Of a DNA stretch of 64,000 nt, positions 8,882 through 45,953 are shown piece after piece. Every line of letters begins with the position of its first letter. Positions within the stretch are counted from its first letter, which is position 1. Source of the stretch: Balanoglossus misakiensis. Lineage: Eukaryota > Animalia > Hemichordata. The stretch covers positions 11,999,654-12,063,653 of the forward strand of contig CM082577.2 in assembly GCA_040954595.2 (NCBI GenBank). Direction: 5' to 3'. A program made the translations under genes and the position numbers. Under the pieces are notes generated by a model. That model was not told the origin of the DNA. It ran no database searches and saw nothing but the letters and a program-made list of their open reading frames with translations.

Positions 8882-9066
8882 TTAAGCTAATTTTATAAAT
8901 CATAACCCACTTCCGCACTACATGAGGAGACGGAAAAATAGCGTAACCACACGATGTTATGCTCGCCACGCGATCACAAACAAATTGTCATCCCGCTTGG
9001 ATTAGAAACCGCCATGTACAAACAATGTATATTTACTCACAGCTTATAAGCGTGTCGTAATATTTT
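8768..9066. repeat. Left copy of the 299-bp target-site duplication
   Basis: Identical by eye to 13658-13956 (offset 4890). Confidence 0.9.
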
Positions 9067-12200: not shown

Positions 12201-12733
12201 GGAAGAAAGTCTACAGAGTCATCAAAAATAAAATCGTCTTCTACACCCGTTCGAGCGTTAAAGTCACCACCAATTATGAAATAACTGTCTGAAAATTCAG
12301 AACATAGTTCAACAAGCTGATTTTCAAAACTTTCAAGGTTGTCCAAAATGGACTCGGGTCTAAAGTAACAACATCCCAAAATTACATTACGGTCAAATCC
12401 GAGCAAACTCTTATGAATATGCATAAAGATACAATTTTCTAAGTTGCTATTAATGGGACGAATCTTGTGAATAAAATGATTCTTAATATAAAGAGCAGTG
12501 CCACCGCTTGGTCTTCCTTTGGAATAGCGCCTTTTGGCAGGTGATTTGAAGACAGTATAATTACGTAAAACATCGACACGGTCTTTATCAGTGCAAAAAG
12601 TTTCCACCATTCCAACTATATCATACTTTGAGCAAAAAGACAGAAAGTCGTCATCGCTGACTTTTGGTTTCAAACCTCGTATGTTCCAGAATAGCAATGA
12701 AAAAATACATACACCTGGGCCTTGGCCACATCC
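9257..12733 (-). CDS. LINE ORF2: AP endonuclease, reverse transcriptase and C-terminal CCHC-type motif
   Basis: APE motifs WNIRGL, ETF, GGDFNAR, SVIDY, SDHFP; RT motifs NYRGISLL, QAGFR, FIDFSKAFD, GVRQGCILSP, YADD, YKYLG; C-terminal CKFC..EDEYHFLVICP. The frame is open up to the ORF1 stop codon; the track start at 12697 is a TTG. Confidence 0.95.
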   Translation of the reverse strand, partial: GCGQGPGVCIFSLLFWNIRGLKPKVSDDDFLSFCSKYDIVGMVETFCTDKDRVDVLRNYTVFKSPAKRRYSKGRPSGGTALYIKNHFIHKIRPINSNLENCIFMHIHKSLLGFDRNVILGCCYFRPESILDNLESFENQLVELCSEFSDSYFIIGGDFNARTGVEDDFIFDDSVDFLPMDADLYNSSNFHMHRNSKDLSVNEAGKALLDICRKFDLHIINGRVDGDKEGNITHISAMGSSVIDYVIMSAELFRYVNCFEVLPRIDSDHFPLTCYINYVNSPLANSSPPADCAPTPITRFHMTEKCKRSFVRNLHSSHIQNILEDSRSAFPNTSCVISKLNLALQTAGADGRIRLNPCRVKPNQPPWFGTKCQQTKATVYNKLKLFRQLGTQDSLDEFKSAKKHFKQICKNCKHEYQNSIRNCFQEAASQNSGEFWSILNSVIGRRKFSQSEISIQSWFDYFSNLYKKCHDIESGDLEFLRSVEEEINLYTCNNNDLEENVQHTNDVCNSPITETEVLNCLRKLKNGKAPGPDGLPNEFYSYAADVILPLLVQTFNFIFESGRFPPEWSVAIVIPLFKKGVKSDVNNYRGISLLNALGKVFTSILNDRLTKWSDSSNIVSDCQAGFRKNHGTTDNIFTLHAIIQKYLSVRRGKLYCLFIDFSKAFDRVNHSLLLYKLMSLGIKGKMFRILKSMYSNIKSCVRAGNVSSHYFDCPAGVRQGCILSPILFSFFIEELNSMYMSAGIMGVQLTQELYDLFCLLYADDVVIFADSVRNLQCLIDILAIFCTKWRMQINFDKTKVMIFRKGGHRSRWEKWHFNGTAIEIVSHYKYLGLLLSSRNSWSKAVSTLANQANKALTSLSVARWKLGHFDCNVHFKLFDVLILPILCYGSEVWGHQYFDAIEKIQRNWCRRILGLPKNATNEAVLGECGRFPIYYYTLKRCISFWLKLLEMPNDRIPKQAYIMLCNLDSIGRRTWASSIKDILFSFGLGFAWVAQEVGNKQLFLSTFQLRVQDIFRQQWRENMALKPKLRTYIQFKSILEPEKYLSIQCHHNVIQMYSRFRCSSLPLAIEEGRRHHIDPADRHCKFCNTKAVEDEYHFLVICPLYNNLRVRYLPTDLFLEPNFYKFTSVMNTNDSDTILRLCNFVHRAVKLRERADANV

Positions 12734-13603
12734 CTACAGTGCAATTTCTTTGACTTGAAAAATTTGTCCATTACTTTCGTTCACTTTGTAGATTTTCTTG
12801 ACTCCCTGCTCGTCAGTGCATATTAACTTGTCATACCTTACTTGTGACTTCAGTGACGGGTTGTCCTCCAGCAGCGACTTGCGGAACTGTAGTAACTTTG
12901 CTCGTATAGAACGTATGCGCTTCGAAAAGTCTTCGCCGATACTAACGTTTGTACCTTTGAGTTTGTTAGCAGCTGAAAAGACTGTGGACTTGTCTTTGTA
13001 TCTTGCAAGCTTGGCCATGATCGGGTGGGATCCTCGCACTTTTGGCGCGTTTGTTACTCGGTGTACCCTCTCAAATTCAATTTCCTTCGAAATGCCGAGG
13101 TTGTCCTTCAGCACAGACTGGACTTTTTCCTCTGAAGTGCTCCAGCTCTCAACCGGGTCGTCTTGGGGTATACCATAGAAAAGAAGATTGCTTTGTCTGC
13201 TTCTGTTATCCATATCGTCGTTTGCCCGTCTAAGATTGCAGTTTTCTTTTTTCAGTTGGTCTAATGACGATTTAATTTCTTGCAACGTACCTGCGTTGTC
13301 ATTCGATTCCAAGGCTGATAGTTTCGTTGAATTACTTTGAATGGTATCTCGTAGCTCCACCATGTCGTCCTCAATGTTGTCCATTCTGATTTGTAGGGAG
13401 TCCAATTTTCCGTGGACGTACTCCGACTCCGAAAGTAATTTATCGAGTTTTTCATTAATGCCAGCAATGTCATCCTTCGTAGCAGCGCGTTGTGGTCCCG
13501 GGTTGCTTTCCACATCACCAGCCAACACTAAAAGACTTATGAGGCATAATTTGATTGACAGCGGCAGCTGGCAGTTTAGCAATGGTATGGTGAGTGCGGC
13601 CAT
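12734..13603 (-). CDS. LINE ORF1: N-terminal 2A-like peptide, coiled coil, L1-ORF1-type RRM/CTD
   Basis: LLVLAGDVESNPGP; heptad-rich middle; DNRSRQSNLLFYGIP, IEFERVHRV and KLKGTNVSIGEDFS motifs typical of L1-like ORF1. Confidence 0.9.
   Translation of the reverse strand: MAALTIPLLNCQLPLSIKLCLISLLVLAGDVESNPGPQRAATKDDIAGINEKLDKLLSESEYVHGKLDSLQIRMDNIEDDMVELRDTIQSNSTKLSALESNDNAGTLQEIKSSLDQLKKENCNLRRANDDMDNRSRQSNLLFYGIPQDDPVESWSTSEEKVQSVLKDNLGISKEIEFERVHRVTNAPKVRGSHPIMAKLARYKDKSTVFSAANKLKGTNVSIGEDFSKRIRSIRAKLLQFRKSLLEDNPSLKSQVRYDKLICTDEQGVKKIYKVNESNGQIFQVKEIAL
13493..13546 (-). other. 2A/StopGo ribosome-skipping motif
   Basis: Exact D(V/I)ExNPG-P consensus (GDVESNPGP) preceded by a hydrophobic helix. 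Confidence 0.85.
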
Positions 13604-13657
13604 CTTGGGTGCCTTTCCATTCCGTGTTGGATTCCCACCACCAAAAGACCCAATTTT

Positions 13658-13956
13658 AGTTGTGTGTGGTCGAACGTTGATTCACTATATATCCACATGT
13701 AGAATAACATAACAGTGTCTTGTATCAAACATAATCAATGGGAAAAGGGCAGCGAGAGAGACTTTGTCCCTTTAAGCTAATTTTATAAATCATAACCCAC
13801 TTCCGCACTACATGAGGAGACGGAAAAATAGCGTAACCACACGATGTTATGCTCGCCACGCGATCACAAACAAATTGTCATCCCGCTTGGATTAGAAACC
13901 GCCATGTACAAACAATGTATATTTACTCACAGCTTATAAGCGTGTCGTAATATTTT
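13658..13956. repeat. Right copy of the 299-bp target-site duplication
   Basis: Identical by eye to 8768-9066. Confidence 0.9.
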
Positions 13957-22348: not shown

Positions 22349-25300
22349 TCGGAAAAACTGAACCTTTTTGGAGAGAAGAAAGACGTGCGTGCTGACGTCA
22401 CAAAGAAAGCTGTCACTGACTGGTTGACCGAGAAGTCGAACTGGCTGCTGGTATTGGACAATGCTGACCTTTCCAAGCACGTATTTGATTATTTCCCCAA
22501 TTTCCCTAAAGGAGGTCACATCATCATCACGTCACGTGATACTTCATATGCAGGGTCGACGCTATACCCGGGAGTGCGGAAACCATATAACATAAGGCCT
22601 CTCAAGGCAGAGGATGCAATGCTGTTGTTGGTCAGTTGTTTCTACAACAAGTTAGACAGGAAGCCTATGGACATCACAGCTGCCCGTGATAAGATCAAGG
22701 AGATGGAAGAAAGTGATGAAGCCAACTTTGAAGCACTGCGATGGCTTGCTGGGCCAGATGGCCTTGATGGTTTACCACTTGCACTGTTTGCAGCTGTGAA
22801 GTACATAAATGAGAACAATTCGTCCTTTGTTGAATACAAGCGACTGTCACAGTCCTGTGTCGATGACGAACTGTTTCCTTCGGGCGAAGACGATCCTCTA
22901 GGGGCCTGGTTAAGGAGCTGTTCCTTGGAAAAGTACCATTCGAAGCTGTATAAGAAGACACAGAATTCTCTCACGGCGTTCTTGGAGCTTACTGAAGACG
23001 ATCTGAAATCACCAGAAATAGACATGACAGAAAAAGATGTGAAGACGTTTATGGAGTTTATCAGAGCAGAGGAATCTGACCTAAATATCAACAAATGGAT
23101 GTATAAACGAAAAAGGGTCCTGGCCACTTGGAACCTTACAGTCCGACATCTGACGGTCACACAGCAAGGCAGAGCCGCCCTGGAACTCCTTCAGATGTGC
23201 GTGTTTCTGGAACCCACTGTTTCAGAACAACTGATCGTTAAAGGGGTGGAAGGCATCACCTCGGAAAATCTTAAATCTACCTTCCAGGATGTCGAGCGTT
23301 GCAGGGAGAAAGATCGACTTGATCGTATTCAGCTAAAACTCAACGGTGTTCTGAGGGGACTGCGAAGGCACAGTCTGGTGGACAGCAATGAAGCAAACTT
23401 CGGTCAAACAGAGAGTAGCTGCTGGACACAGCGCAATTTTAGCATTCACAGAGTTATCAGAAAAGCGGTCAAAGCTGATCTCGCCAAAGGTTACAATGAG
23501 GCCAAGTACTTCGAGGCGCAATCGAGTGCAATATCGCTCTTGATGAAGGTCTTTCCTGCTTACAGCCGATTCACTGGACCCTGCGGGCCCTACCCTGAAG
23601 AAGAAGAGGAAGTCGCTGTTCACACGAAGACCTTAAGTCGCAATCTCATGCATGATCTGCTCAGTAAAGCGAAGGAGAGAATACCAAACCCAGCCCAGCT
23701 TCTGTATGCAGTTGCACTCTATTACAGAATCTTTAAATGGAGACCCTACGAGGCACTTCCATTGTACACGAAGGCTCTCGAGGTAGAAGCAAGTTTCACC
23801 ACAAAAGACAAGCTTGAAACTCGAGAATCCAAACTTGGTTATGGTGAGTATACGAGCAAGTCAAATCAAAGAAACAGTATACTGTAACTATTATACGTGT
23901 AAGTTAAACCGAAAGAAATTTTTTTCTGTTGCAAAACACTTCTACATTTAATTGTTGTATATAACTGTGAGAAAGAACTGACCGCAGCATTGTACGTGTG
24001 TTGTTTAACGCAGTTGCTTAGAGGCTAATTAAGTAATATTACTTTTCACCTTTCAGCTCAATTTCAACTTGGTAGAGTACTTATTGAACTTGCAAGAAGG
24101 GAGGAGGAACTTGGAAACTCAAAAGAAGCACGTTATAGAAAAGAGGCGGCACTAAGACATCTTGATAAAGCAGAGCAACACTTTAAGAAGAGCTGCTCAG
24201 AAGATGCATATGAGACCAATGTTGACTTTGCAAAATGTGAGATGCGCTTTTAAACTGTTTAAAATGACAAAGTCTCTCTCTCACAGCCCTTTTCCATTAA
24301 TTATGTTTGATAACCATTTATGTTAATGTACATGTGTATATGTAGTGAATAAATGTTCAACCACACACAACTTCCATCCCACTTGTAGACAGGAGAATGA
24401 TAAGCTCGCCAAAACGAATAATCGGTCTCCACCGTTTATTCTTTTTGGCGAGATTTTTACTCTCATACCCTACAAACGGGATGGAAGTTGTGTGTGGTCG
24501 AACGTTGATTCACTACATATACACATGTACATTAACATAAGAGAGAGACTTTGTCCCTTTAATACAATCTGGTGGTCAATAATTTACATGTAATTGGTAA
24601 GTGTGGTGATAGCATACTACTGCCTTTCTGGTGAAACTGGTTTGATTCCCAATAGCCCTTCTGAGGAATGAGACATACACAGCTCACATAGACATCTGTG
24701 ATACACCATCTGTGAATTTCTAGTCCATTTGCATCGATGACATAGACACGATGTACTGGATCATATTACATGACTTGTATTCTTCGTCAGATTCCGGACA
24801 AACTGTAAATCAGTCTGATTAAACACGTAAACATTGTTAATTTTCCGACAGTGAATTTCATGCATGCCATGGCCCTTGAAGGAGGATACTTGCGAGATTA
24901 CAACAAGCAAAGCCCTGACGATGCCACTGTGAATATGATTGAGCAGAACTTGCAGAAGGCAATAAGTATTGCACAGATGTCTACCGACAATAGGTCAAGA
25001 AAGTGGACCGTTATAGGTATGCCAGTCAATTTCAATCTGTTGTAACTAATTTACAACTTGTTACTAAGGGACCGTTCAGTTTTTACGGCTGGGGGGGGGG
25101 GGTCGGCAAGTTTGTGTCATCGGTTTTCAAATCAGGCCGACCCCCCCTTCACCCAGCACAAAAAAATTATGACCACCCCCCTTTGACAGACCCAAAATTA
25201 TGATGACCCCCCCCCCACGCTGAAAACATTCGCCGTCCTGATCCTATGTACTCTGTATGCAATAAAGGAATGAGGCTCCTCACACCTCAACTATACATTT

Positions 25301-28300
25301 CTGAAAGTAATTGAATTATAGAATAATATCGTTGCAATAAAGAAATCTATGAACAAAATAAAATGACAAGTCAATACAATAGTTGCTAGAATTGGTAAAA
25401 CAGGAAAAGTGGCGGGGGTGGGCGTGGGAGGGGGTGTCCCCCTCCCACATAAGAAAATTTTGTAAAATATGTAGCTCAAAGTTGCATTTTTATGAACTCA
25501 AAAGCAAATTCATCTCAATGTTTGGGAGGACCAGCATATAGAAGATGCAGCACGAAACTATCAGTTATGCGAAATTATTTAAACGATTATTCTCCTTTAT
25601 GTATTTACTTTGTTAAATATTATCATCAGTGGGTTTGGGGTGGCAAGCACTCTGCCCTGGTACAAAAGACAAACCAGCAAAAATCGAAATGTGGCGGAGA
25701 ATGTAGGGGGTGGGTGTGGGAGGGGGTTTCCCCCTCCCACACTCGACAATTTTGTAAAATAAAGGGCGCGAAACTGCAATTTTGTGGACTCAAAAGCAAA
25801 AGTTCGGTGGCAAAAGTATGTGACCCCCCCCCCTAAACGTTTAAAAAAAACAGATGACCCCCCCCTTTTGGACTTCAAAATTGAAATGACCCCCCCCCCC
25901 CCTGGATTTTGCCGCCCCCCCCCCCCCCCGGCCGTAAAAACTGAACGGTCCCTAATGACGACATGCACTTGTTGTCGATGCGTAGGAAACCTGGAGACAG
26001 TATATATACTGTAAAATCTATTCGTATAACTGTATGCATTGTTATCTATTCACAGCCATGCATGAATACGCACTTTTTCTCCTACGAAAGGACGACCAGG
26101 GGGACAATCGTGAAATAGAGAAATATCTCCAGGACTCGCTTCAAATAAAGACAGATCTCTGGGGCTCCAAAAACGACGGCAACCATATAAGCAGGGCAGT
26201 TGGCAAGTTCGATTATGTTGTGATTTCAGTAGTTTGTAAATGACAATGTGGCAGTTTAATTCTCAATGACAATTTGAACCATGAACTATGCCAAGTACCG
26301 GAATGTAGTTTGGACAACTCAGTGCAGTAAATGTGTGAATATATGATATTGCATGACTTAACTTTGTCTAGAAGTTCTCTCGTTGCACTTAGCATATACA
26401 TCTCGTTGAACCCTGTCACGTGTTGTTCTATCATAGACCTGAATATTTGTTTCGCGACAGTTGCTTTATACTGAGGGTAGTTCATTTTCTGATTTTTTTT
26501 TCTTTAAGGGATGACTGATCTAGCTGTGTTCTATCTTGTGACTGGGGACACCAGTAAATATAAAAAGGTTGAGGAGCTCTTGACAGATGCGCTGAAGATT
26601 AAGGAACGTGTACTGCCTTACTATGAACAATTCTTCAGTTGGCAGATAGGTAAATGACAGAATGCATCTCATTTGAACCACAATGTGAATAATTAGGGAG
26701 CCGTCATTATTTACGGCCTGGGGGGGGGGGGTCGGAGGAATTACACTAGAAACTCCAAAATTTTGAGAAACCCCCCCTGCCAAGCATGCACATTTTGAGA
26801 AACCCCCCCCCCCCCTTCCAACACAGAAATTTCGACTGGCCCCCCCTAAAACCGGAACAACTACATATCAATACATGTATCTGTATTGAACACCCATTGC
26901 CTGGCCATGAGGGCCATAGCGGCCGTTTATTACACCCGAGGGGCTGTGAGTTACCAGAATCATATGCTATTTCCCGAGGCCTGCGGCCTCGGGAAATAGC
27001 ATATGGTTCTGGTAACTCACAGTCACGAGGGGGTAAAAACGGCTGCTATGGCCCGAATATAGGCCAGGCTATAGGTGTTTTATAATAAACCTCATGCTAT
27101 CAGCTGGGAAAATCTTGCAATTTTCTCTTGAGGTTGGCAGACGACATCTTCAGTGGTGGCCATTGTGTCAGACGACGCGACACCGATTGACGTGACCGAG
27201 TCTGCGCACTCACGCTGGTCACGTGACCGGTTTATATTTTTTCTGCTATTTCCCTAGAGGGATTCATAGTCGATTCTATTTTCCTATCACGTGACGGATT
27301 CTGGCGAATCACGACACAGTATTAGCATGAGGTATATTATAAAAATCATTATAATATACCTCATGCTAATACTGTGCCGTGATTCGCCAGAATCCGTCAC
27401 GTGATAGGAAAATAGAATCGACTATGAACATGATGAACCGCTAGGGAAATAGCAGAAAAAATATAAACCGGTCACGTGACCAACGTGGTCACGTCAATCA
27501 GCGTCGCGTCGTCTGACACAATGGCCACCACTGAAGATGTCATCTGCCAACCTCAAGAGAAAATTGCAAGATTTTCCCAGCTGTTAGCATGAGGTTTATT
27601 ATAAACACCTATAGCCTGGCCTATATTCGGGCCATAGCAGCCGTTTTTACCCCCTCGTGACTGTGAGTTACCAGAATCATATGCTCTGGTAACTCACAGC
27701 CCCTCAGGTGTAATAAACGGCCGCTATGGCCCTCATGGCCAGGCAATAGGTGTTCACTTTTACAGTAGTGTAGTAAAAGACCTTTCAACTCCAGGTTCAC
27801 CCTGCTACATTGTAGGTGATCATCAGTTGCATCATGATGGATTGAAAAGGGTGAAACAACAAAACAATCTCAAAGTCACAACTAAATAATGATTACCGTA
27901 AAAGCTCACCCATAACCAGTAACCATCAAGTAGCATTGTGTAATTTGGACAGGCATCGTTAAAAGTCAAAATGATTATCAATCTTTGTTGATATAATAAG
28001 GAGATATGTTTTTTATGCATGATCAGGCAAGCATGCCAATCCTTTATCAGCAAATTTTGGGAAAAATACTTTGACAGTGCAGTGTGGACACTCTGGTGTT
28101 CCGCGACCGGAGGTCGCGGAGCGCTGCAGCACTTGCACAGCACACAACTAAATCTTTCAGTTGAAAAACTTTGATACATTTCCCAAAAATGAGTGACCCC
28201 CCCTCTTCATCTACAATTTTTGAGAAACCCCCCCCTGCAGCCTTCCAATTTTTGAGTAACCCCCCCCCCCTTCATTCCTCCGACCCCCCCCCAGGCCATA

Positions 28301-28799
28301 AATAATGACGGCTCCCTTAGTGTTGAGCATTTTAGGGACACGTGAAAGTTTTTGAATTACATTGTATCAGCTGTACATTTATTTTCGGACTGCAATATAT
28401 CTATATGACGTACAAGATATTGACATTGATTTCCAGGTGTCTATTTGCTTATTCGAGTGTACATGTTGCTGGAAAATGAAGAGGAAAGGGAGAAATATGA
28501 AGACATCCTGAAGACGAAAGCAAAAAGAGATTTCTTGGAGGAGTTTAAATCAGATGATCTGCACAGAGGTACAAGCTTAACAAAATCTATATGTTGACGC
28601 TAGTTAGGCTGTGATCTCTAGTTAGTGTTTCTGTTAAGTTTGAAGGGTACATAGTAAGTCTAATACACGTTAATGTACACAATTGCAATTATCAATATTA
28701 TTAATGTTGTGTCGCCTATGCATTGTTCGCCTTATACTTGAGTTGACAGCTTTCTCCTTTCTTGCAGAGTTTCCTCTGGACCCCCTAGTATGGGTTTAA
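22349..28799 (+). CDS. NB-ARC/TPR (STAND, NLR-like) paralog A; 5' exons including Walker A not found
   Basis: Exons 22349-23843, 24057-24236, 24852-25016, 26056-26202 (GC donor), 26509-26649, 28437-28568, 28768-28799 give an open 763-codon frame. Walker B WLLVLDNAD, HIIITSR, GLPLAL, FSIHRV and TPR-like helices (ALPLYTKALEV). Exon structure matches paralog B. Confidence 0.85.
24263..24558. mobile_element. Kolobok-like palindromic MITE copy in an intron
   Basis: Same family, TTAA flanks. Confidence 0.75.
25068..25952. mobile_element. PIF/Harbinger-type MITE
   Basis: TIR GGGACCGTTCAGTTTTTACGGC with TAA target duplication on both sides; subterminal poly-G/poly-C runs. Confidence 0.8.
26696..28316. 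mobile_element. PIF/Harbinger-type MITE containing a nested palindrome
   Basis: TIR GGGAGCCGTCATTATTTA(C/T)GGCCTGGGGG with TTA duplication. Confidence 0.8.
26887..27756. repeat. 870-bp near-perfect palindrome made of two inverted copies of a hairpin-ended (Crypton-like) element
   Basis: Arms 26887-27342 and 27349-27756, 6-nt spacer AAATCA. Confidence 0.88.
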
Positions 28800-31172: not shown

Positions 31173-33328
31173 TTAAGTCAAATTTTGTCCATTCACGTAC
31201 ATGACTGCATATAGTCAGTGTTGCATACAGTTTTGGACCACATGGGCCTTTTATTCTCAGAGCGTGGATTCATTTCACGTTGATAGGATAATTGCTGTCA
31301 ATGCACACTGCTGTGGCAACGTTTTTTTTGTTTTCAAATGAAACAGACTTTTTGGTACAAGTAGTTCGTTTCGTCTAAATATCACACACAAAATCGCCAC
31401 TTTTCATACAGCAAATTTCCTACTTTTTTATCTAGGTTATGCACGTACTGACATTATGTTTCACGGTGAGTGATTTTATGCAAGTATCCCGTGTATTCTT
31501 AATATCACAGAAAGAGAGACTTTGACCCTTTAGTGGGCAAGAATTTCATCTCGGGGAAACACATGTAGCATGTCCATACAATACAGCGCCCACAGTGGAC
31601 AACTAACGCGGAAGCTACCCCTGACTTTGTCCGTTGCGCGTAGTATGGCGAGGTGAGCATCAGGCGGTCGTGTTAGGTCGTTGTCTACCATTGGTAATCC
31701 CAAACTGAAAGTCGGTGAGTACAATCAGCTGTCCCCGTTCGTTCATTTTGTCGAAGGCACATGTCACGACTAACAATGACGTGATTCTTTCTTGCGTAGA
31801 ACGTACATGTATCCGTTAAATCATACTTTCAGTTTGCTTTCATGTCACACACACACACACACACACCTCCATTGAAGACTGCTGACGGAGGTTTAAATCA
31901 ACCAATACTGTAAACCCTTAAGTGTCAGTTATGCATTATTAGGACAATACTCAGGTAATGTCACCGAATATATAGCCTAGTACCTACCCGTATTTTGTCC
32001 GCTTTGCTTCCAAAACTAAGCAAAGCGGACAAAATAGTGATAGGTACTAGCCTACCGAAAATGGGACAGTGTTCGAGTGCACACGGCAGAGGTAAGGTGC
32101 GCACTCAACCATGTATACAATACAGCACAAACATGTATAAGATGTATCAAGTTTCTCGCAGTAACGAGACATGGAAAGACCATTCGGCAAAATTGAGCCA
32201 ATCACCTCCTTTCCAAAATCCTTGTGGTTTAAACAGCATATTGACTGTTTGCAAATTATAATCTGTTAGTATTAAGCTACATTTGTGGCGTACGTGCTCA
32301 ACTGCCGCAGTCTGTATTAACTCTGGTTTAAGAGGGTCACTAAGTCATCGACCGGTCACACGGCGACCGACCAAAGTTCTCCAAAGAATATTGCGTTTGT
32401 TTGCGTGTCATCGCTACCAGAGACGGTATCAGGCCACCTCGCTCTATTAACATGAATTGACCCAATTAAAAAAGTTGCCTCTGATGCATTTGTCCAGCGC
32501 TTTGCGCCAAATCTTCGCTACTCAAATATAGTATGCGCCTCGAGGACATTTCCCTTTCAACGACTTTTCATTAAAAAAATGGTATTTTAAATATTCCTCG
32601 CAGAGTTTACGAAGAGATAAGCGGCCATTTTTAGTTTCAAATTTGAGACAATTTGGTCCTCTCATTCAAAGTTTTGCAAGGTGACTATACTTCTAAATTT
32701 TAAGAGATGATATTCTACAAGGTTTTTCTGATTTTAGAGGCGCGTGCTATCTGTTGCTCTTCTGCACAATGTTTAGTAAGGTTGATACGCATGCGCATAT
32801 TTCTGGTAAACAACCGCAGAAAGGAAGGTGACTTGATTTACTGTTTAACCGGTTTCCTATACTTTACTTTATCCGTACATGCTGTGTTGGATTGTTACGA
32901 TATCAACTTGATGCAAAGATAATGAAAGTGAATGAACTGAAGAGAACCGAAACTGAAAGTGGAATCGTCTTATATGATAATGGGAACAGCAGAAGCGGGT
33001 GTCCGAATTCTGCGAGATAAATTACAAAAGAAGCGGGGAGATAGCGAGCTGACCCGATTCGTGACGTCGTCATTCCCACGTGTGGTATTTGTCACAGGCC
33101 TGATAAGGTTACCTTGAGTGACCCTCAGTTGACCCCTTCAGATATGGGACACGAGACCAGGCGAAGCTGTATTGGTCGCCAGGTCGCTTGCTGACATTGG
33201 CAGATTTGCTTTCATGAATTTGCCATTTTCGGTGCATTCGCACGAGAACGTAATCAGTTTTCAAGCTTGTCTTGCAAAAACACTGTTAAAATTGGGCAAT
33301 TGAAATTGTTATTATTCACACAACAGAC

Positions 33329-36300
33329 ATGGACGAATACACATTGGTTATAACGTTGGCAGTGATTATTTTTTTCTATTGGTTCTTCAAGACCCAACTC
33401 GGTAAGTAGGTGTTGGACATGTAAATATTTTAATATAGTAGTATTATATTACAAAACATAAAGTTTGGGTCCATTTTCATGTTGAATTTTCGATGGGATC
33501 GTATCTTAAGCCAAAATGCGGTGCCTGTTTACAGATAGAGTTACACAATTTCTATACATTGGAATTGTAGAGACGGGTAATTAGGCGACACCCACTATAT
33601 GTATTACAATTATTTGTAGATTCCCTTCGCTTGAGTCACATGGAGTGTGCGGGCGATATCTTCCTTCAAAAAGAGACCATTTGCAGTATTACGAACTCAC
33701 ATTTTTGTACAATTTGAAAGAGTGCAGACTACCACTACATGACTTTGATTACCACATTTTCTCTTCCAGGAAATGCTGAGTTGCGTGCAGAAAACAGGGA
33801 ATTACTGCAGCAACAAGAAAGAAAGCTTGGTAAGCCATGTACATGTTCGAAGGAAGGTGGCATGTTTTAATGTAGAAATAATGGACGACGCCCTGACCAT
33901 TAACGTTTGTTTATGGGCGAGTGCGAGGAGAAAGCCAAAAATTCATGGGCGAGGCGAACTCAAGAAAACCGTCAAAATTTACGAAAATGTCCCACGCAAA
34001 AGACTTGGGGCCCCGGAACTTGTGTTACGCAAAATGTTGAATACACAGAACTGTTTGTTAATATTACTATTCAGATTTACGGGCATGTCAAAAAACATTA
34101 CTGAGTATTTGTGGTCATTAACGTCGTTCATCTCGACCAATTAAAATGCGACGCACAGGTCATGGTAATATGCATACGAGCGACTTTCAGTTTTGCCTTT
34201 AAAGTTTTGAGAACCACAATGATCCTCAAGGTCAACCAGGATGAGGAATTTGGTCACAGGAGCCGTTGAAACATCCCAACATGTAATCATCCGACAAACG
34301 TCAAATTCTCGGATAATAGACCATAGATTAGACTGTACCCCACATAAACAGATGAATATTGTCTTTTAATTTCAAAGACTACTGATTGCAAGTATTGACA
34401 TAATGAAGTGTGTTTTCGGTGCCATTGCTTTATGACGTGACTACAGACGCGATACTACAGTGCACAAAAACGAGGGCATGCGCAGTAACACAAGTGCAAT
34501 TTATAACAAAATGTCATTTCTACAACTTTGCAGATGACTTAAAGAGGCAAATTGGAGCTGTAGAGAGAAGTAAGTAATCAGCCACTTTATATATTATAAT
34601 TTCGAAGATTCTTATTGATTGAGTCACTTGTAGTTTATGGACGATAGATTCTCCCATGTGCAGTATTGCAAATGTCATTAACAGTTTTTTGTAAAATGTG
34701 CAGACTACTAGTATACCGCAATCATTATCACAATTTCCTTTCAGGAAATGCTGAGTCACTTGAAAAAGTTGAAGGAACACTCGGTAAGTTTTCATGAATG
34801 CTCGCCATTCTTTTGTCAGCATAACTAAGATTAAGGTGGTTTCCTTTATTACCACTTTAATGTATTTGCTATAAAGACCTGTTTCACCAAAAGCCTGCAA
34901 GGCGCATGACGGATAGGTGGCAGAGTGCCATCTGAGACGAGCAAGCATATTCTTGTCAAATATCCCATAATAGTAAATTTTATCTCAATGGAAATATGAA
35001 TATTTATTACCGGGCACTTTGATCCGTATGTCTTGGGTTGGTTGATATATTTTGTAGCCAAATATAGAAGATTTGGGAACCAAGGGAAATCTCATGGTAA
35101 AAATTAACGAAGTCTTTACTATAGGTCTTGGGGTAGGGGGTCATTGAAATCTGTCCTATCACAATCGAAAGTCACTAAAACGATTTGTTGAAACTAGAAT
35201 AACAAGTGTTTACGAATGTACAAGTAGATGAAAGGTGTGCAATTTTGTCGCGTGAACGTTACACTCCCGGATAATCTCATTTTACCACGAAAACCTGGAA
35301 AATTACTAAAATACTCCTGGAATGTTGAATTTCTGTAGGTGTAAGAACCCTAAACATTGTATATGCACAGTGTCATTCAATTACGATACAGGACTTTAAT
35401 GTATGTGTACCAAAGGAAAGGATCATATCATTAGCATGTTTTTCTTTACAGAGGAAATAAAACGGACCGTAGAAGACGTCAATAAGCGAAGTATGTGTTC
35501 GGTATTCTCTCTATGGTACTTATAAAAATATTTGCAGACTGCCGCAAAATTTTTTGTGCATAAAGCAAAAATCGAGCGAGAAAGAAATATGATATATTCT
35601 CATAATTATAAAAAAGGAATTTTTTTCTGTCTCACCCATGATATTGTGTCCCGAAGTGGATGATATTTGTAGCCCAGTAGAATCCAACATTGGATCCTTA
35701 GCTTTAGGCCCCAAGAGCTGCCACGTTAGGCTTGTTTTAAGGATAACTCTTTAAAATTCAACTCATCCGACAAACGACGCCATTTTGAATTTGTGATGAT
35801 ACACTTCCGCGCGTACTATGAGACGTGTACTCTTGTAAAGGCGGGCTGAAAAACTATACTTCACCCATTTTAACTTTGACACGTTAAATGGCCCAATCAA
35901 GGTTTGAAAGTGATATCATGAAAATAATGCCAACATGACATCAACTAAGGCATGTATAGGATCCGTTATTAGTGAACCATTTCTCATTTTAAGTAATAAC
36001 TCACGTGTAAAAACGGAGCCTTCTATTTTGTAGTGAAATCGCATATGGACAGTAATTGACCTTTCTTTTATCACTTGCAGCAAAGCCAATGATTCTTATA
36101 CAACCGGAAAAGACCGAGAGTCTATGTCAATCCCCTATACTGGATAAACAAGCTTTGAAGCAAGCGTCTGGTAAGATTTCACAATCCCACTTGTCCTAAT
36201 TAAATGATACGAATTTTGACCAGAAATCATGTAGTTATTTTTGTTTTTTTGCAATATGGGGTAAATTTGGTTTTTCGAAAGTCTGATGTCAGCGAAAATG

Positions 36301-39300
36301 CACGTCACCATGTATAAACAATGATTGTGTACTTCACATGTGTGAGTGCCCCTGAAATAGCTAGGGCATTAAGAAAATGTATTCATTTTGGGGTGTGGGA
36401 CTTTGAGAGTATAAGGTTACTAAAACGGTCTGATTTACATACCCCACACTTAAAAAAGGAACAATAAAATTACCTGCGTTCTTTTCCCCAATAGAGAACC
36501 GTAGCCTCTTTCTACGAAAAACATGTTTTGTTAAATCTACTTAGGCCTATGTTATGTACTTATGTTAATATTAGTCAAAAATAACTCCTCTGAAAATGGC
36601 CGTAATATTACCAAGGAACAGTGATTATAGTATTATGGTATTTGAGTTAAATGATTCCACGCAGTGTGCAGTTGGCAGCATATGGTTTCCATTCTGTACC
36701 CCAGTATTTAATTACATTGTACACAGACAAAAATGCTTATTTTTGAGTGTCCATGGATTGGCGTTTAAAAATCATATGACTTCTCTGTAAACAAGTGCCT
36801 TACTATTGTTACTCTTCTTGTTTGAATTCATTCAGATCTACTGGAATACATGCGAGCTCCAAATCCTCTGTTCATTGGCTATGAACAGCGACTGGAAGAT
36901 ATTTACCAATCCTACGTAGAACATCAACCTGCAGAAGCAGATGCCAATCCGACGTTAAGGAGTAGCGTTATTCATGTAAGTTATACATATATACGTGCGC
37001 TCCTGTAAGGTATTGTGGGCCTCAAAAATCAAAGCTATCAATTGTTTCTCATATTAAGATCAGTGTAACATTTGATTATTCTCTTAAAATTGAGAAAACA
37101 AAGTGGGGACACCGCGCAAAAAAAAATAGTGACAGAGAAAATTGTTTCAAATTTTACAATAAAAATGGCCACCACTCTCTATATTGAGATGTTGGAGAAT
37201 ATTTGAAGTAGTGATGATTATGAAAACAAGAATGAAGGTGAACCTATGTATTCTTCTTTTTGTTCAATAGACCCCTCACATTTTTTTATGTGAAAGAATT
37301 GAGGGGTTTGAAAGACAGCAATTACTTTTGAAAATGTTTTCCCATTAAGGCGCGCACTACCTTGACAGATCAATTTCTGGGATTCAATAGATTTACATTT
37401 TACACAATTGCCATTTCTGTTAATTAAATGGACGAGGAAACGAGTGCATAGAATGAAAGATGCGAAATGCAATGTATATGTAAAATTCAGAATCTTCGTG
37501 ATGAAAATATAATGGTGGTCAAAAGTGGAAAGTAGTACAATTCATTGATAGTTTCCTGTACTTGTGAAGAAACGGCGAGCAAACATACACAACAGAGAGT
37601 CTAATAACTGAAACGTTATTTTTTTATTTGTAGGTGATAAATGGCCTGGCCGGTTGCGGGAAGTCAGAAATTGCTATACAGTACATCAGGAAATATTTTA
37701 AAATCTATACAAGTGGTGTGTTGTGGATACCCGCGGGTTCCCCTGCGACCTTGGACTACGTATTTAAACGGACGGTACGTTTTATGTGTCCTGTCCCGTA
37801 ATTTGTAGTCACAGTGTATACCAATCGTGATATCCACAAAAATCTAGGGGTTTGTAAAAAAATCCCAGACGTACTTTGTATGACAGTTGCGACCTTGAAT
37901 GATGATTATTTTGCCTACTGTTACGTCACCGGTCATTCGGTCTCTACAAATAAGTAACAGCCACGTGTGACTATTTTATAGGCGGAAAAGCTGAACCTCT
38001 TCGGGGAGAAGAAAGATGTGCGCCCTGACGTCACAAAGAAAGCCGTCACAGACTGGTTGACGGAGAAGTCGAACTGGCTGTTGGTCTTGGATAATGCTGA
38101 TCTGTCTGGCAACGTCTTCGATTATTTCCCCAATTTCCCTAACGGAGGTCACATCATCATCACGTCACGCGATACGTCATATGCAACGTCAATCCTATAT
38201 CCCGTAGTGAAGAAGAAATTCCATATCAAACCTCTCAAACAAGACGAGGCCATGGTCTTACTGGTCCGCTATGTCGACGATCAACCAAACGGGGAACCCA
38301 TGACCGTCACAGCTGCTAAAGACATGATCCAGAAGATGGCAGAGCAGAATCCAGCCAACCTCGAAGCACTTCAGTGGCTTGCTGGTCCCGATGGCCTTGA
38401 TGGTCTACCACTCGCGCTCATTGCCGCTGCAAAGTACATGAATGAAAACAAGACGTCGTTTTCTGGATACAAGCAACTGTCGATAAATTGTATTGACAAG
38501 GAACTGTTTCCCACCGCTGAAGATGATCCACTGAGGGCCTTTTTAAAGAGCTGCTACTTGGACAAGTATCACGAAAACATACGCGAGAGGACGCACAACT
38601 CCCTCACGGCATTCTTGGAGTTGACCAAATCTGACCTGACTTCTTCCCCGATAGAAATGACAGAGACCGACGCTGACCGGTTCCTGGAGGAAAGAGACCG
38701 CGAGGTGTTCATCAACAAATGGATGTACAAACGAAAGAGTGTCCTGGCCACGTGGAGCTTAACATTCCGACATCTGACGGTCACACAGCAAGGCAGAGCC
38801 GCCCTGGAGCTCCTTCAGATGTGCGTGTTTCTGGAACCCACTGTTTCAGAGCAACTTATCATCCAAGGGGTCGAAAGCATCAGCCTGAGTGACCTTCAAG
38901 CGGCCTTGAAGGACAAAGTGAAGGGCCTGAGAGCAGACGAAAAAAGTGACCAGATTCAGCGCAACCTCAACACAGTTCTGAAGGAGCTACGAAGGCACAG
39001 CCTGGTCGACACCAACGAAACAAACATCGGTCGAGCAAAGCTTGGTCACTGGGTAAAGCGAAATTTCACCATTCACAGGGTTATGAGGAAGGCTGTCAAA
39101 GCAGATCTCTCTGAAGACACATATAGTGAAAAGTACATCGCGGCTATATCCGGTACAATATCGTTCCTGGTTTCAATCTTCCCCACGTATGAACAGGTCT
39201 ACAGAAGATTTACTGGTCCCTATGAGGCCATCTCCGAAGAAGAAGAAGAGGTGGCTCTCCATACCAAGACTCTCTCTCGTAACCTCAGAAACGACCTGCT

Positions 39301-42300
39301 CATCGCAGCAAAGGGGGAGATACACAACCCGGCTGACCTGCTGTATGCTGTTGCGCTGTATTATCGACTCGTAAAGGGGAGGCGCGATGAAGCACTTGTA
39401 CTCTACAAGAAAGCGTTAGAAGTAGAAACCATCCTCGGCACGGCACTCGATAGCCAAAAACGAAACTTTCAAATTGCTTATGGTGAGTTTATACAGTATT
39501 TTTTTCAAATAGTACTGTTTTACGTCACTCTGTTTTTATCATATTCTCGAATACGTTGTTCTGTAGAAACAAAACCAAGAGTCTAAAGACATAACATCGC
39601 CAGAATATTACAAATCATAACGTTTCACCATTTTCTCATGGTACGGACGCTAAATGTTTTTGTCAGTAAAAATCTCTACTTACAGTGATTTATTTCACTC
39701 CAGCTCACTTTCAGCTTGGCAGAGTTCTGATGGAACTTGATAATAAGGAGAAAGCTCTCCAGCATCTTGAACAGGCGGAAGACCACTACAGAAAGAGCTG
39801 CAGCTCCGAAGAAAAATTTGATGCAGATGTAAAATTGGCAAAGTGTTAGTATAGTGTCATGCCATTCGGATAATTGTTAGTGTTAGAAGCAGATGTATGT
39901 TAAGTACCTAAATGCTGTAATGTAACACCGCCTTTGCATGTCACAGTCTTCTTCTCGCACTCCTGGCACGCTGAGAGTGTGGGATCAGAGTGTGAGAACA
40001 AATCGATCCCACACTCTCACTTAATTTTGTCCAACACAGACTAGTGTGGGACAGAAAATCCCAACTCGTGTGAGAAATATGATCCTAAACCCAATGTATC
40101 TTTTGGGTTGACATTTTTATGATCCACAGTGTACAATATACAAGCGATGGCCCTTGAAGGAGGATACGCGAGGGACTACAACAAGCCCATTCCCGACGAA
40201 AGCACCGTGAATGAAATTGAAGGCAAATTCCAGACGGCAATCAAAATTTGTCAAAAACACTACAAGAATGAACCAGGAAAATGGACGGCCATAGGTATGC
40301 AAGTATAATATATTCTTGTTATTTTATAACTGCACATTAACGGGCAAGGAACTACCATTACAGCTCTCTATATACAAACCATCATGGCATCTGTACATTT
40401 GTGTATACCATAATCACCGTTTTGAGCGAACTGCGATCATTCCGCTCTCTTGATTGCTATTTCAGCCATGCATGAATATGCAGTTTTTCTCCGCCGAAAG
40501 GAGCCAGTTGACAAAGGCAAAATAGAGACACTGTTTCGGGAGTCCCTGGAAATGAAGAAGAAGGTTTGGGGATCCAAAGATAATGGCAACCATATAAGCA
40601 TTGCGATTGGTGAGTGTAAACTTTGCAACATAAAATTCGTGTAATGAAATATTAATGACGACGGAAAACGTACTTATAACATACGAGATAGATTGTTGTT
40701 CATCAGAGATGGTTCCAAAATGACGTACTGTAAATGGATATCTTTGTTTAAAGGAATGACTGACCTTGCTGTGTTTTATCTCGCGAACGAGGATGCCAGT
40801 AAATACGAAGAAGCTGAAGGCCTCTTGACAAAGGCACTGAAGATCAAAGAGTGTGTTCTGTCCCACTATGAGCAATTCGACAGCTGGCAGATAGGTACTT
40901 CAATTTGTTTCACTGACAATAACCTTTGAAATCATGTATAGCGTTATAGGTTGATCAGCACCGACTTACTGCGGCACGTTTCAGTCATGACTTGCAAAGC
41001 TGACCATGTATTTGTAACATTTGAATGAGAAAAAAATGAATGCTTAAAACAAACATTGATTGAAGTTATTTGTAAGTTTTGTCTTTTCAAAACGTTGATT
41101 GTGTCAACTCAACTGCGTTGGAAGTGTTAAATGCGAATCGTTATTGACGAATTTAGTCGTATAATTTCAGTTGTACATAAAAAGTACCCCTTGACTGTAA
41201 AACTGGCCACACATTACTGCTAAATCATCCATTCTGCAGATTTACCGATATCCGTCCGGTTAAGTGTCTGTATTCTACTTTAGTTTTCTTTTTTTGCCTT
41301 TCGGGGACGCAATATTGGTGTTTCAAATTGTGTTCATACATACTCTTCAGTTAAAGGGACAAAGTCTATCTCTCGCTGCCATTTTCCCATCAATTATGTT
41401 TTATACAATACACACTGACTGTTTACTAGTATGTTATACTACATGTGGATATAGTGAATCAACGTTCAATCACACACAACTTCCATCCTATTTGTAAGAT
41501 ATGAGAGTAAACATCTCGCTAAAATGAATAAATGGTAAACACCGATTATTCATTTTGGCGAGTTTTTCACTCTCGTGTCTACAAGTGGGATTGAAGTTGT
41601 ATGTGGTTGGACGTTGATTCACTATATATCCACATGTAGAATAACATGAACGGTGTCTTGTATCAAACATAATTAATGGAAAAGGGGCAGCGAGAGAGAG
41701 ACTTTGTCCCTTTAAAAAGACTAGTATAAAATGAGGTGGCAAATTATTTTTCAGTATCTTCAAATGTCTTTATCATGTCATTCAATTTCAGGAGTCTATT
41801 TTCTTATTCGACTATACATGCTACTGGGAAACGACGAGGAAAAGACAAAATACGAAAACCTACTGAAAGAAAAATCGGAGAAAGCATTCGAGGAGGAATT
41901 TGCATCCAGAGACTTAGGGAAGGGTACGTACAACTTCTTCAGTCTGTTTGCAAATCATGTAGCTCTCTTATTAGGTCCCATTTGTATAGGTATATACCAG
42001 TGGGACCTTATAGGATCGGTTGCGTCTGTATGTATGTATGTATGTATGTATGTATGGATGGATGGATGGATGTCTGTATGTCCGTCCACATCAAAAACTT
42101 GAAAACCGCTGCACGTATAACCTCGATATTTGGTGTGTAGATGCATGCTGGGCTGTAGATGGGAGTTTGTTCGAACGAAGTTGTCATTGCCAAAAATATG
42201 CAAATTAGCTGGTTACTTAGTTGGCTGATTATTTGGTAGGATGATTGGTTGTTTGGCTGTGGTGTTTGAAGAAACTAACTATGCTGACATCTTTCCCTCT

Positions 42301-42340
42301 CCTTGCAGCTTTCCCACCGGATCCCATGATGTGGGCTTAA
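33329..42340 (+). CDS. Full-length TM - coiled coil - NB-ARC (with SAM-like insert) - TPR protein, paralog B, about 957 aa
   Basis: 15 phase-consistent GT-AG exons: 33329-33401, 33770-33829, 34534-34569, 34745-34783, 35452-35490, 36081-36170, 36836-36975 (PNPLFIGYEQRL), 37634-37774 (Walker A GLAGCGKS), 37982-39482 (LLVLDNAD, GLPLAL, FTIHRV), 39704-39844, 40130-40294, 40466-40609, 40754-40894, 41792-41923, 42309-42340; 2874 nt open frame. Confidence 0.87.
41355..41711. mobile_element. Kolobok-like palindromic MITE copy in an intron
   Basis: TTAA-AGGGACAAAGTC...GACTTTGTCCCT-TTAA. Confidence 0.8.
41971..42212 (-). mobile_element. 3' fragment of a Helentron-associated (HINE/DINE-1-like) element
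   Basis: Inverted homolog of ~47973-48210; tetranucleotide microsatellite plus short terminal hairpin GGTCCCA...TGGGACC. Confidence 0.65.
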
Positions 42341-43393
42341 TTCATCAGCGGAGTACCCACCCTTCCGTGGTTTGTGTATCGCCAGACTCTCAAATGTAGG
42401 ACTCAGTCGTCGAGGAGAGTTTAACACATCCAACAACTCCCTTGGTTGACATTGCCAGCAGTGCCGGGTTGATATTTAGTGCTCCTGTCTGAGCACTGAG
42501 GAGAGAGTCTTTGATCTTGCCAAACGTTAGAAATTATGGTCAAACTGCTAATGAACTTGTATTGATATCTAACAATGTTAGCATACACTGATGATTTGTG
42601 TCGTGAAAATTTTTGTTTTGTACATTTTTTGCTCAATGCCGCATTCATTTAGTACTAGATTATGAGAGTAACTGACAGGTTGAATATTGTTCGTTTGAAT
42701 TCATTACTGTGAAATTACATTTTCAGATATAACGCTTCAGAGCAGTGCCTGTAAAATACAGTGTCTACGAAATAGTAGAAAGGACGATATTAGTGTGTCC
42801 CTTTTTAGTTGTAAACGTTTATCTTGACATTACAATTTCAATCTTGGTGGATAAGCATATTTTACACTCTCGCATTGACAGGATTTGTCCTTGATTTTAA
42901 GATGACGTATTTTGGAACGATTTCTTATGCAAAACCAACAGCCTTGACTATAGTTTGTCTATTTCCACATATACAATCTAAACGTCCATCCGTCCCCAAT
43001 ACTTCATAATAAGACACGCCACTCAACACATTTAAATACAGGTCAGCAATCAATAGCCTGTGTATGATAAGCATTGTACAGATCGACAAACAGTCTGATA
43101 AGCTACGCAAACAGTGATCACCAGTTACGGCAAACATGTTTGAGACTTTGGCTCCTTTGACATGACCAGATGAATTCTTTTGAGTGATATATGTTTAAGT
43201 TGGAAATATCAAAACACGTATTATTCTATGAAATAAAAGAAACAAGGGCATCGACAGTATGATGTAAGCAACTAATTGTTTTTGAGTTTCACTGATGAGA
43301 ACTCGGCGCGCCTCTTATCTCTTGTAGTGGATCCAATCGCTCACCATGACGAAATGTAATCGATATTTTTGGCTTGGGTGTACACGACGCGAC

Positions 43394-43712
43394 GAGAGAG
43401 AGAGAGCGCGCGCGCGCGCGACAGCGAGAGAGAGAGAGAGCGACAGCGAGAGAGAGAGAGAGGGGGGGGAAGCGACAGCGAGAGAGAGAGAGGGAGGGAA
43501 AGCGACAGCGAGAGAGAGCGACAGCAAGAGAGAGAGAGAGAGCGACAGCGAGAGAGAGAGAGCGAGAGAGAGAGAGCGACAGCGAGAGAGAGAGAGAGAG
43601 AGAGGGGGGAAGCGACAGCGAGAGAGAGAGAGAGAGAGAGGAAGCGACAGCGAGAGAGAGGGAAGCGACAGCGAGAGAGAGAGCGACAGCAAGAGAGAGA
43701 GAGAGAGCGACA

Positions 43713-43743
<31 letters not shown>

Positions 43744-43822
43744 GCGACAGCAAGAGAGAGAGAGAGAGGGGGGGAAGCGACAGCGAGAGAGAGAGCGACA
43801 GCGAGAGAGAGAGAGAGCGACA

Positions 43823-43853
<31 letters not shown>

Positions 43854-44027
43854 GCGACAGCAAGAGAGAGAGAGAGAGAGGGGGGGGGGAAGCGACAGCG
43901 AGAGAGAGGGAAGCGACAGCGAGAGAGAGAGCGACAGCGAGAGAGAGAGAGAGAGCGACAGCGAGAGAGAGAGAGAGGGGGGAGCGACAGCGAGAGAGAG
44001 AGAAAGAGAGTGAGTGAGAGAGAAAGC

Positions 44028-44080
<53 letters not shown>
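43394..44080. repeat. Compound microsatellite (GA)n punctuated by GCGACAGC
   Basis: About 25 GCGACAGC motifs separated by variable GA runs. Confidence 0.95.
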
Positions 44081-44081
<1 letters not shown>

Positions 44082-44805
44082 TTGGTAAAGTGTGTCATTT
44101 GAAACTGCCATCAGTATTGCCTCAGTTTATAGCAATACATTTCACTGGTCGTACAACGGCGGGCCACGAATAACTCGAAAAGGTATTCCGGTGCTCGTCA
44201 TGCTATTTTCGCACTTGGTTCTATTTTGATGGAACAAGCTGAAATAACTCTGATTGGTGATTGGTTCTTGTTTGCAAAATCGATGGTGTTCGTGTTTTGT
44301 TTTGTAATTTTTAAAGAAGTATACATTCATCTGCGCGTGCATATAACTGTCGGTTCAATATTTAAAAGCCAACGACGAATGGGTAAGTGGATGCGTTTGT
44401 TTATTTATTTATTTTCTGGTAATTGTCTGAAAATCTCCTCAAACCGACAAATTGCATGGTTTCCCTGTTTTTTATATTTTCCATATGGTAATGTTCTGGA
44501 GTATGCTTTCTGCTGCAGAAGAGAAACACTTGAATTATTTGTCAACACTTGGTGAGTTTGGGGTTTGCTGTGCACGGTCCATTCTGTCATAAAATTAATT
44601 CTAAAAAATAAAAATGAAACAAATGAATAATTAATTAACGATATTTAAATCTAAATGAACTATCACACGATCGAGTTTTGATCAGTACGTACATACGTGC
44701 GTGATCATGGCTTGAAATGGAGTCTAACATATTTTGTTTTTTCATGCACGCACATCTTGAATAGAGGCATCACGTATTTTCTATTTTTTTACAGGTCAAC
44801 ACGCC

Positions 44806-45953
44806 ATGAGGTTGTTGCTGGTCGTCTCGACGCTTCTGGCCGTCGTGCACTGTAGTTTCGAAGCCAGCCATCCGTTTCGTTCAAAGCCATGGGTTTGTAC
44901 GACTTCCAAAGTCAAGGGATACGACGACACCATATTTGATATTATATCAACTCACGGCGTTGAGTGTTTCGAAGAGATAATGGTGTTACCGGACGCACTG
45001 GAGAAAGAGACGCCGATTTACACTGCCAAGTTCGTGAAAGTTGTTGGTAGTTATATCGGACCAACAAATACATACAGAAGCGTAAGCATTGTGAGTGACA
45101 AGTTGGACACAGCCGCGATAAACATGGTAAATATATACAATTTTAAGCGAACGGGGAGTTTAGTTGCAACTCTGAGTTTCACACGTCGATCACAGTCCCT
45201 CCTGTATTGACAACAAAACGTTGCTTCTTTTTCGCGCAGGGAACCAGGATATCTGACGACGAATCTGTCATAGAGTGTTTAGATTGTACAGTTAGCGTCT
45301 ATACCGAGAGAAGACTCGCTGAAACGTGCAAAGACATGAACGTAAGTTTAGCCCAAATAAAAAATATATGTTGTTGCGATTACCCGACCTACCCTAATTT
45401 TAGCCCGCCGACCCTAAACTTTTTAGAGCTCTGTACACCGGAAGTAAAAGAACTATGACATCATTCTACACTACGGTGCCCAAAGATATATAACAAATTG
45501 CAAAATAAAAAAAAATCCCTACCTACCTACCTTATTTTTGAAAGCCATGTACACTGTTATCGAACCAGCACATATTTTTTGGCCTTAATTAATCAAAGGT
45601 CCACTATCTGTAACTTTTGATTATTCTCTCGGTGTTTTCATTCTGTGTAATATGTTTGCCTGGAACACAACCTTCTGACTTTGGAATTCTGTCATCTTTT
45701 GGGAGCGTTGTATTTCCCACGCTACGCTACAAAAATATTGTGAAAAAATCATAATGGTGAAAATTGAATTTTTTTATTATTATATTTTAATATTTAGATA
45801 TGTCCCGAGAAACTCTCCCAGGTACTCTACTGGAATCCTCCAGGAAATGTCACCTTTTCTGTCAACGTTGAGTACTGTGCCTACAGAGGTTCTGAAGACA
45901 CCTACAGTTACTTCTGCAAGTTCTATCACCCTGAACATGATTTGGAGTTATAG
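44806..45953 (+). CDS. Secreted cysteine-containing protein of unknown family, 192 aa
   Basis: Signal peptide MRLLLVVSTLLAVVHC; phase-0 exons 44806-45126, 45240-45341, 45798-45953 with canonical splice sites; 8 Cys in the mature region. Confidence 0.7.
45351..45584. mobile_element. MITE, same family as 5202-5487
   Basis: Shares ACCCGACCTACCCTAATTTT..CCGACCCTAAACTTTTTAGAGCT. Confidence 0.65.

Follow-up and report, generated by a model that had tools for sequence, protein, structure and literature searches.

Can the hinge of a STAND switch carry a whole folded domain? The junction that links HD1 to the winged-helix domain (WHD) is what moves in apoptosomes, in resistosomes and in bacterial STAND switches, and the question is raised by a locus of the hemichordate Balanoglossus misakiensis contained in a window of 64,000 nucleotides (nt) (GCA_040954595.2, contig CM082577.2, positions 11,999,654 to 12,063,653). 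The window holds a gene on the forward strand, here called gene B (33329-42340), and upstream of it part of a second copy, paralog A. An earlier note, made from the letters alone, had proposed a membrane-anchored NLR-like protein with a SAM-like domain inside its NB-ARC ATPase. Sequence comparisons and structure models indicate that the product of gene B is a STAND ATPase of the Apaf-1 type, with a C-terminus of TPR fold and, at the HD1-WHD hinge, a SAM domain, an architecture that is real, conserved and apparently undescribed.

The insert at the hinge is a SAM domain

The distance between the GLPL glycine and the tryptophan that opens the winged helix was 115-121 residues in all nine family rows and 51-55 in 139/139 prokaryote-type relatives (140 non-family rows were taken, one being omitted because it had no Walker A match). 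Since the flanks align cleanly, about 65 residues were added at one point, in agreement with the roughly 60 extra residues that the earlier note had seen in both paralogs. These spans rule out an ordinary HD1-WHD linker, which was one of the ways in which that note could have failed; another, a domain that is not a SAM, does not hold either.

The insert of gene B occupies residues 387-447 (38522-38704, +) and that of paralog A lies at 22892-23068 (+). The latter reached 25.9 bits with Pfam SAM_1 (cut-off 23), which P0160, P0164, P0167 and P0168 also passed. When the family profile was compared with PDB sequences, 13 of the 14 matches (E<=10) were SAM-bearing proteins, all of them on the insert, headed by the SAMs of ANKS6 and SHIP2 (weak matches, E 0.0045-0.11, the lower value being the best overall); SAMs of SARM1, Caskin and tankyrase were among the sequence and fold matches. 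In the AlphaFold2 model built for exon 9, whose mean pLDDT was 81.8, the insert consists of five helices (model residues 183-190, 194-204, 208-212, 216-220 and 228-241; pLDDT 71-95). SAM chains matched the insert residues of this model in 24 of the 50 fold matches listed, at Z 6.8-8.3, a range that taken alone is middling by the guidance of the fold-search tool itself. At E<=0.001 a Foldseek search with the exon-9 model found nothing; VIA and the full-length homolog model described below did give matches. Because sequence, length and fold agree, we consider the insert a SAM domain, as first proposed.

Between paralogs A and B the ratio of nonsynonymous to synonymous substitution (dN/dS) was 0.18 on the SAM insert (59 codons) and 0.28 on the whole of exon 9. 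By this comparison the insert is under purifying selection, and this one pair gave no sign of diversifying selection. Additionally, the residues encoded right after the SAM (38705-38740) can be aligned to the beginning of the second SAM in the Caskin tandem, a hint that the insert could derive from a tandem SAM.

The host protein is a STAND ATPase with a TPR fold

The NB-ARC, GLPL and winged-helix motifs named in the earlier note lie where it had placed them, with Walker A at residue 163, Walker B at 238-246, GLPL at 347, the winged-helix start at 462 and the MHD-like IHR at 570. Walker A, Walker B, sensor-1, GxP and the MHD-like His are intact in gene B and in 7/7 annotated close homologs, except for a Walker B variant in P0035, and the sensor-1 arginine is present. 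Pfam NB-ARC scored above its cut-off in gene B (28.8 bits) and in P0001-P0005, where neither NACHT nor LRR gave a match at E<=0.5.

A full-length model (pTM 0.79) was obtained for P0001 from Ptychodera flava (958 residues), which is 53% identical to the gene B product over residues 43-957; two Glandiceps talaboti proteins are 44-47% identical. Its top Foldseek match was the STAND-TPR protein PH0952 (E 1.6e-9), and it also matched Apaf-1, CED-4 and plant NLRs, the best fits being resting forms: Z was 29.2 over 446 residues for resting murine Apaf-1 and 26.4 for the NB-ARC of NRC1. Residues 595-950 matched TPR domains (APPBP2, LGN, KLC) at Z 20-23; members of the close clade score weakly with Pfam TPR. 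Winged-helix fold matches fell on residues 250-385 of the exon-9 model, and the insert maps to the HD1-WHD connection of the STAND switch.

The NB-ARC-TPR architecture of the first proposal is therefore borne out. The note had called it typical of fungal and bacterial receptors; NB-ARC-TPR proteins, with death-fold N-termini, have already been reported in animals, namely amphioxus, cnidarians and placozoans (PMC2246300, PMC6321704), and also in Acanthamoeba and brown algae (PMC4053784). A canonical animal NLR (NACHT-LRR) was ruled out by the NB-ARC-type ATPase and the TPR-fold C-terminus, and an Apaf-1 ortholog by a hydrophobic helix plus coiled coil at the N-terminus and TPR at the C-terminus, with neither CARD nor WD40.

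Gene model and predicted N-terminal anchor

Gene B was modelled as 15 exons forming a single open frame of 957 codons, with AG acceptors, GT donors and consistent phases throughout; exon ends were tested by script on the region 32500-43500 and the junctions are predicted from splice signals. Exon 1 (33329-33401) holds the start codon and a predicted single transmembrane (TM) helix at residues 5-20 (approximately 33341-33388), with a 19-residue Kyte-Doolittle mean of 1.86 and a hydrophobic moment of 0.06. Exons 2-5 (33770-33829, 34534-34569, 34745-34783 and 35452-35490) are phase-1 micro-exons of 60, 36, 39 and 39 nt for a putative coiled-coil stalk: residues 26-82 are heptad-biased (hydrophobic a/d positions 0.62, background 0.30) and the homolog model has long helices there. 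Both elements agree with what the earlier note had described. Exons 6-7 (36081-36170, 36836-36975) encode a linker and the start of the nucleotide-binding domain (exon 7 against the family profile, E 8e-19), and exon 8 (37634-37774) carries Walker A (37643-37666), assigned by motif and profile comparison. Exon 9 (37982-39482) encodes Walker B (38075-38101), sensor-1, HD1 with GLPL (38402-38419), the SAM, the winged helix with IHR (39071-39079) and the arm helices. The TPR-fold sensor region and the stop codon follow in exons 10-15 (39704-39844, 40130-40294, 40466-40609, 40754-40894, 41792-41923 and 42309-42340).

With the 90-nt exon 6, the stalk exons make five successive phase-1 exons (33770-36170), each divisible by three, and exons 2 and 4 share a common acceptor and start (89% over 27-28 nt). 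The coiled-coil stalk may have grown by exon duplication and may vary by exon skipping.

In P0001, P0002 and P0004 too the protein starts with a hydrophobic helix, along with a coiled-coil-like stretch, and this shared layout supports the joining of exon 1 to the ATPase exons. Splice signals, hydropathy and these three annotated homologs are thus concordant on a predicted membrane anchor, with N-terminal sequences that are poorly conserved (12-27% identity). The prokaryote-type match P0006 also has an N-terminal hydrophobic stretch ahead of its NB-ARC-TPR, which makes the anchor the less unusual of the two features and not unique to this architecture.

Paralog A

Paralog A (22349-28799, +) corresponds to exons 9-15 (22349-23843, 24057-24236, 24852-25016, 26056-26202, 26509-26649, 28437-28568 and 28768-28799), an open frame 61% identical to gene B. 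Profile and tblastn searches found no Walker A or TM exon for it elsewhere in the window, including the 22 kb upstream (1-22348). Intron 8 of gene B spans only 207 nt, whereas no equivalents of exons 1-8 were seen in the 22 kb ahead of paralog A, which is either 5'-truncated or starts more than 22 kb upstream, beyond a long interspersed nuclear element (LINE). From the substitution pattern it may be a partial duplicate retained under purifying selection. Its exon 12 has a GC donor at 26203, where gene B has GT.

Range and N-terminal variety of the family

A HMMER search with an HD1-insert-WHD profile over 1.84 billion representatives matched 191 proteins at E<=0.001, of which the best 150 were listed; the 26 at E<=1e-10 all matched in one unbroken stretch. 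Thirty matches were looked up, 15 of them with a taxonomic name: 12 came from Ptychodera, Glandiceps or Saccoglossus, one insert-bearing cluster was from Branchiostoma, and two proteins lacking the SAM belonged to B. lanceolatum and to a MAST-4 stramenopile. A further search with a wide profile added 24 homologs, one of them insert-bearing (P0305), and ESM Atlas matches were unnamed clusters only. Across 325 sequences the span was 41-70 in 230, 114-123 in 40 (isoforms included) and 184-201 in three; 51 were unmeasurable and one was an artefact. P0138 was rejected as insert-bearing, being a pattern artefact. The SAM insert was found in three acorn-worm genera, amphioxus and metagenome proteins, so that an NB-ARC with an internal SAM is present in other metazoan proteins, as the earlier note had suggested looking for. 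By these sequence matches the insert-bearing family is expanded in acorn worms. Pattern scans, which reach close relatives only, confirmed no insert-type loci in viral contigs, nor in metagenome contigs for P0160, and of 35 pattern matches in prokaryote genomes they gave one locus, with the winged-helix part only.

The N-termini of insert-bearing proteins include Death (eight at E<=0.01, five of them above the cut-off), DED, GT4-conflict, trypsin-like and caspase-like domains. Because relatives with the insert keep such diverse domains, the SAM is the constant part and the N-terminal slot the variable one. This contradicts the first proposal on one point, namely that the SAM is an effector placed at the switch instead of an N-terminal module. 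In P0165 of Ptychodera flava the N-terminal partner of the SAM-bearing NB-ARC-TPR is a GT4-conflict glycosyltransferase. Four metagenome proteins (P0173, P0174, P0286 and P0305) have a double-length insert at the same hinge, with a span of 184-201 in the three measured; its first half is weakly SAM, and the likeness of its second half to a SAM was judged by eye only. P0189 and P0208 have small unrelated inserts at the HD1-WHD loop.

A tree was built from 47 rows and 327 columns with the insert removed, ten rows (nine prokaryote-type, one fragment) having been excluded beforehand. All insert-bearing rows and six SAM-less rows grouped apart from the 12-row outgroup (96/97), and the animal rows grouped together (95/87) with SAM-less P0233 among them. 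Presence and absence of the SAM required four changes, SAM-less kin being interleaved, and a tree in which all 29 insert-bearing rows form one clade was rejected (p-AU 0.0077, long branches being present). A SAM profile of the close clade gave 26-28 bits with amphioxus inserts and 15-31 bits with one metagenome group, the SAMs of an unrelated multi-SAM protein 2-12 bits, and a second metagenome group less than 2 bits. These scores and the tree fit one early gain of the SAM followed by losses, plus perhaps a second gain.

Relation to known systems

Gene B has the same NBD-HD1-WHD-arm-TPR order as PH0952 (PDB 6MFV), MalT and the bacterial, fungal and algal NB-ARC-TPR proteins, and prokaryote-type members of this group are the next sequence matches after the family (about 25-37% identity). 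In PH0952 a 6-residue stretch joins HD and WHD (PMC6468293), whereas gene B has a whole SAM there. The NB-ARC fold resembles that of Apaf-1, CED-4 and invertebrate NB-ARC proteins, and relatives of gene B share Death or DED N-termini with them; Apaf-1 itself combines CARD and WD40, unlike the TM, coiled coil and TPR of the gene B clade. SAMD9, SAMD9L and fungal NLRs with SAM_Ste50p join a SAM and a STAND ATPase in one chain, as gene B does, and SAMD9 was among the fold matches. In SAMD9 the SAM is N-terminal, ahead of the ATPase, and a SAMD9-like protein was ruled out because the SAM of gene B lies between HD1 and WHD instead. SAM_Ste50p is also N-terminal in fungal NLRs (PMC9815663), and SAMD9 is mentioned in PMC12931631. 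In gene B, unlike both, it is the switch that the SAM interrupts, and the N-terminus has a module of its own. Among plant NLRs, those with integrated domains (the HMA of Pik-1, the WRKY of RRS1) resemble gene B in that a foreign domain is grafted into an NB-ARC receptor, but their domains, such as the HMA of Pik-1, lie outside the NB-ARC core and vary between lineages, whereas the SAM is inside the core and conserved.

The view that this architecture had not been described before agrees with the literature searched: the accessible parts of PMC2246300 and PMC6321704 do not mention a SAM inside NB-ARC, and none appears in those of PMC2575513, PMC8195603, PMC7159879, PMC11933841 and bioRxiv 10.64898/2026.09.21.753143, although subscription papers such as Leipe 2004 and supplementary architecture tables may list it.

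Other elements in the window

An apparently intact LINE at 9260-13681 (-) has a frame of 1158 codons, in which Pfam recognises endonuclease and reverse transcriptase, and an upstream frame of 315 codons that gave no Pfam match. A repeat of about 370 nt at 41351-41716 has copies near 1177-1524, 6259-6594, 7399-7750, 8556-8885, 13658-13775 and 24255-24562, and matches them in both orientations, like a palindromic miniature transposon. Downstream of gene B are a GA-rich microsatellite (approximately 43380-44100) and a 149-codon frame at 44761-45207 (+), with a signal-peptide-like hydrophobic start and no Pfam match.

What the hinge SAM could do

Known STANDs rest in a closed ADP state, open at the HD1-WHD hinge when a ligand binds and form rings. 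By analogy with them we tentatively favour, at somewhat less than an even chance, the reading that gene B is a sensor tethered to a membrane and that its hinge SAM would serve, in step with activation, as the place where a partner protein docks. The resting protein would be ADP-bound and closed, hung on the membrane by an N-out/C-in helix with the ATPase in the cytosol, the N-out orientation being suggested by the negative charge that precedes the helix in 4/4 TM-bearing members. Binding of a ligand to the TPRs would open the switch, the SAM would change position, and several SAMs clustered on the activated ring could bind a partner avidly. In this regard, activated MalT becomes sensitive to protease at its HD-WHD hinge (PMC6468293), and plant NLRs are activated through repositioning of the WHD (PMC8813719). 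The simplest partner would be another SAM, bound through the acidic mid-loop side as in ANKS6, whose monomeric SAM has ANKS3 bound through its mid-loop (PMC4105859). The SAMs closest to the insert by sequence, those of ANKS6 and SHIP2, share the acidic mid-loop and non-basic end-helix of the close clade, where the mid-loop segment is net acidic in 8/8 inserts, as counted on alignment segments of sequence and not on surfaces. The N-terminal slot would provide output or targeting, with TM and coiled coil here and Death or DED in paralogs, and a role in immunity or cell death would be consistent with this.

Several observations weigh against this docking reading. The insert of gene B itself scored 15.1 bits with Pfam SAM_1 (E 0.03), below the cut-off of 23, and the Walker B of the protein reads DN instead of DD/DE, like that of prokaryote-type relatives. 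The mid-loop was net negative in only 5/13 Death-clade inserts, so its acidity is not family-wide. Moreover, close relatives such as P0233 of the amphioxus B. lanceolatum and P0199 of a MAST-4 stramenopile have no SAM at all, and the switch must therefore be able to work without it.

The SAM-less kin interleaved on the tree, together with the small inserts that P0189 and P0208 carry at the hinge loop and the lack of family-wide conservation of either canonical SAM surface, would also suit an intramolecular latch that tunes the closed-open equilibrium, or a passenger tolerated at a permissive loop with no partner. We regard this as unlikely, because fold and span (114-123) have been kept across acorn worms and amphioxus and the dN/dS of the insert is low.

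The SAM could alternatively be an integrated bait, in which a pathogen or host protein that targets SAMs would bind and trip the hinge. Binding at this position could open the switch directly, decoys of this integrated kind are an established feature of plant NLRs (PMC8813719) and the family is expanded in acorn worms. Nevertheless, the SAM is constant while other parts vary and the A-B pair showed no diversifying selection, which makes a bait quite improbable.

The earlier note had seen the SAM as an effector or polymerisation module; in that version it would self-polymerise and supply or extend the oligomer, as in SARM1. The SARM1, Caskin and tankyrase SAMs are indeed among the matches, and the double-length metagenome inserts may be tandem SAMs. 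However, in SAM polymers an acidic mid-loop is paired with a basic end-helix, located where helix 5 starts (PMC4105859), and by sequence charge this segment was net positive in 0/8 close-clade and only 2/22 animal inserts. Without this basic charge self-polymerisation is unlikely, and the intact oligomerisation motifs of NB-ARC need no substitute, so that we consider this version very doubtful.

CC (coiled-coil) domains of plant resistosomes act at membranes on activation, and the TM helix and coiled coil of gene B, which occupy the slot that in relatives holds Death, DED, GT4 or protease domains, might likewise damage or signal at the membrane on clustering, with the SAM as an accessory, but this is the least probable reading since the helix is uniformly hydrophobic in 4/4 TM-bearing members (moment 0.03-0.18), unlike an amphipathic pore helix, and the N-termini are so poorly conserved.

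Implications for the family

The hinge length is nearly fixed in the 139 relatives, and a folded domain of 65 residues at this point shows that the hinge can carry cargo; the family offers a natural conformational reporter of, or handle on, STAND activation. It escapes domain scans because the NB-ARC match is broken in two by the insert, whose own score mostly falls short of the SAM cut-off. More speculatively, and with a small chance of being right in full, the docking reading could extend to a so far unrecognised STAND receptor class that acorn worms, amphioxus and some microbial eukaryotes would share, in which the HD1-WHD hinge would be a second output port: activation would display a ring of SAMs that recruits SAM-based signalling polymers, at the membrane in the gene B clade, the SAMs having been captured at the hinge more than once. 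The finding draws attention to an expanded family of receptors, as yet unstudied, among invertebrate deuterostomes.

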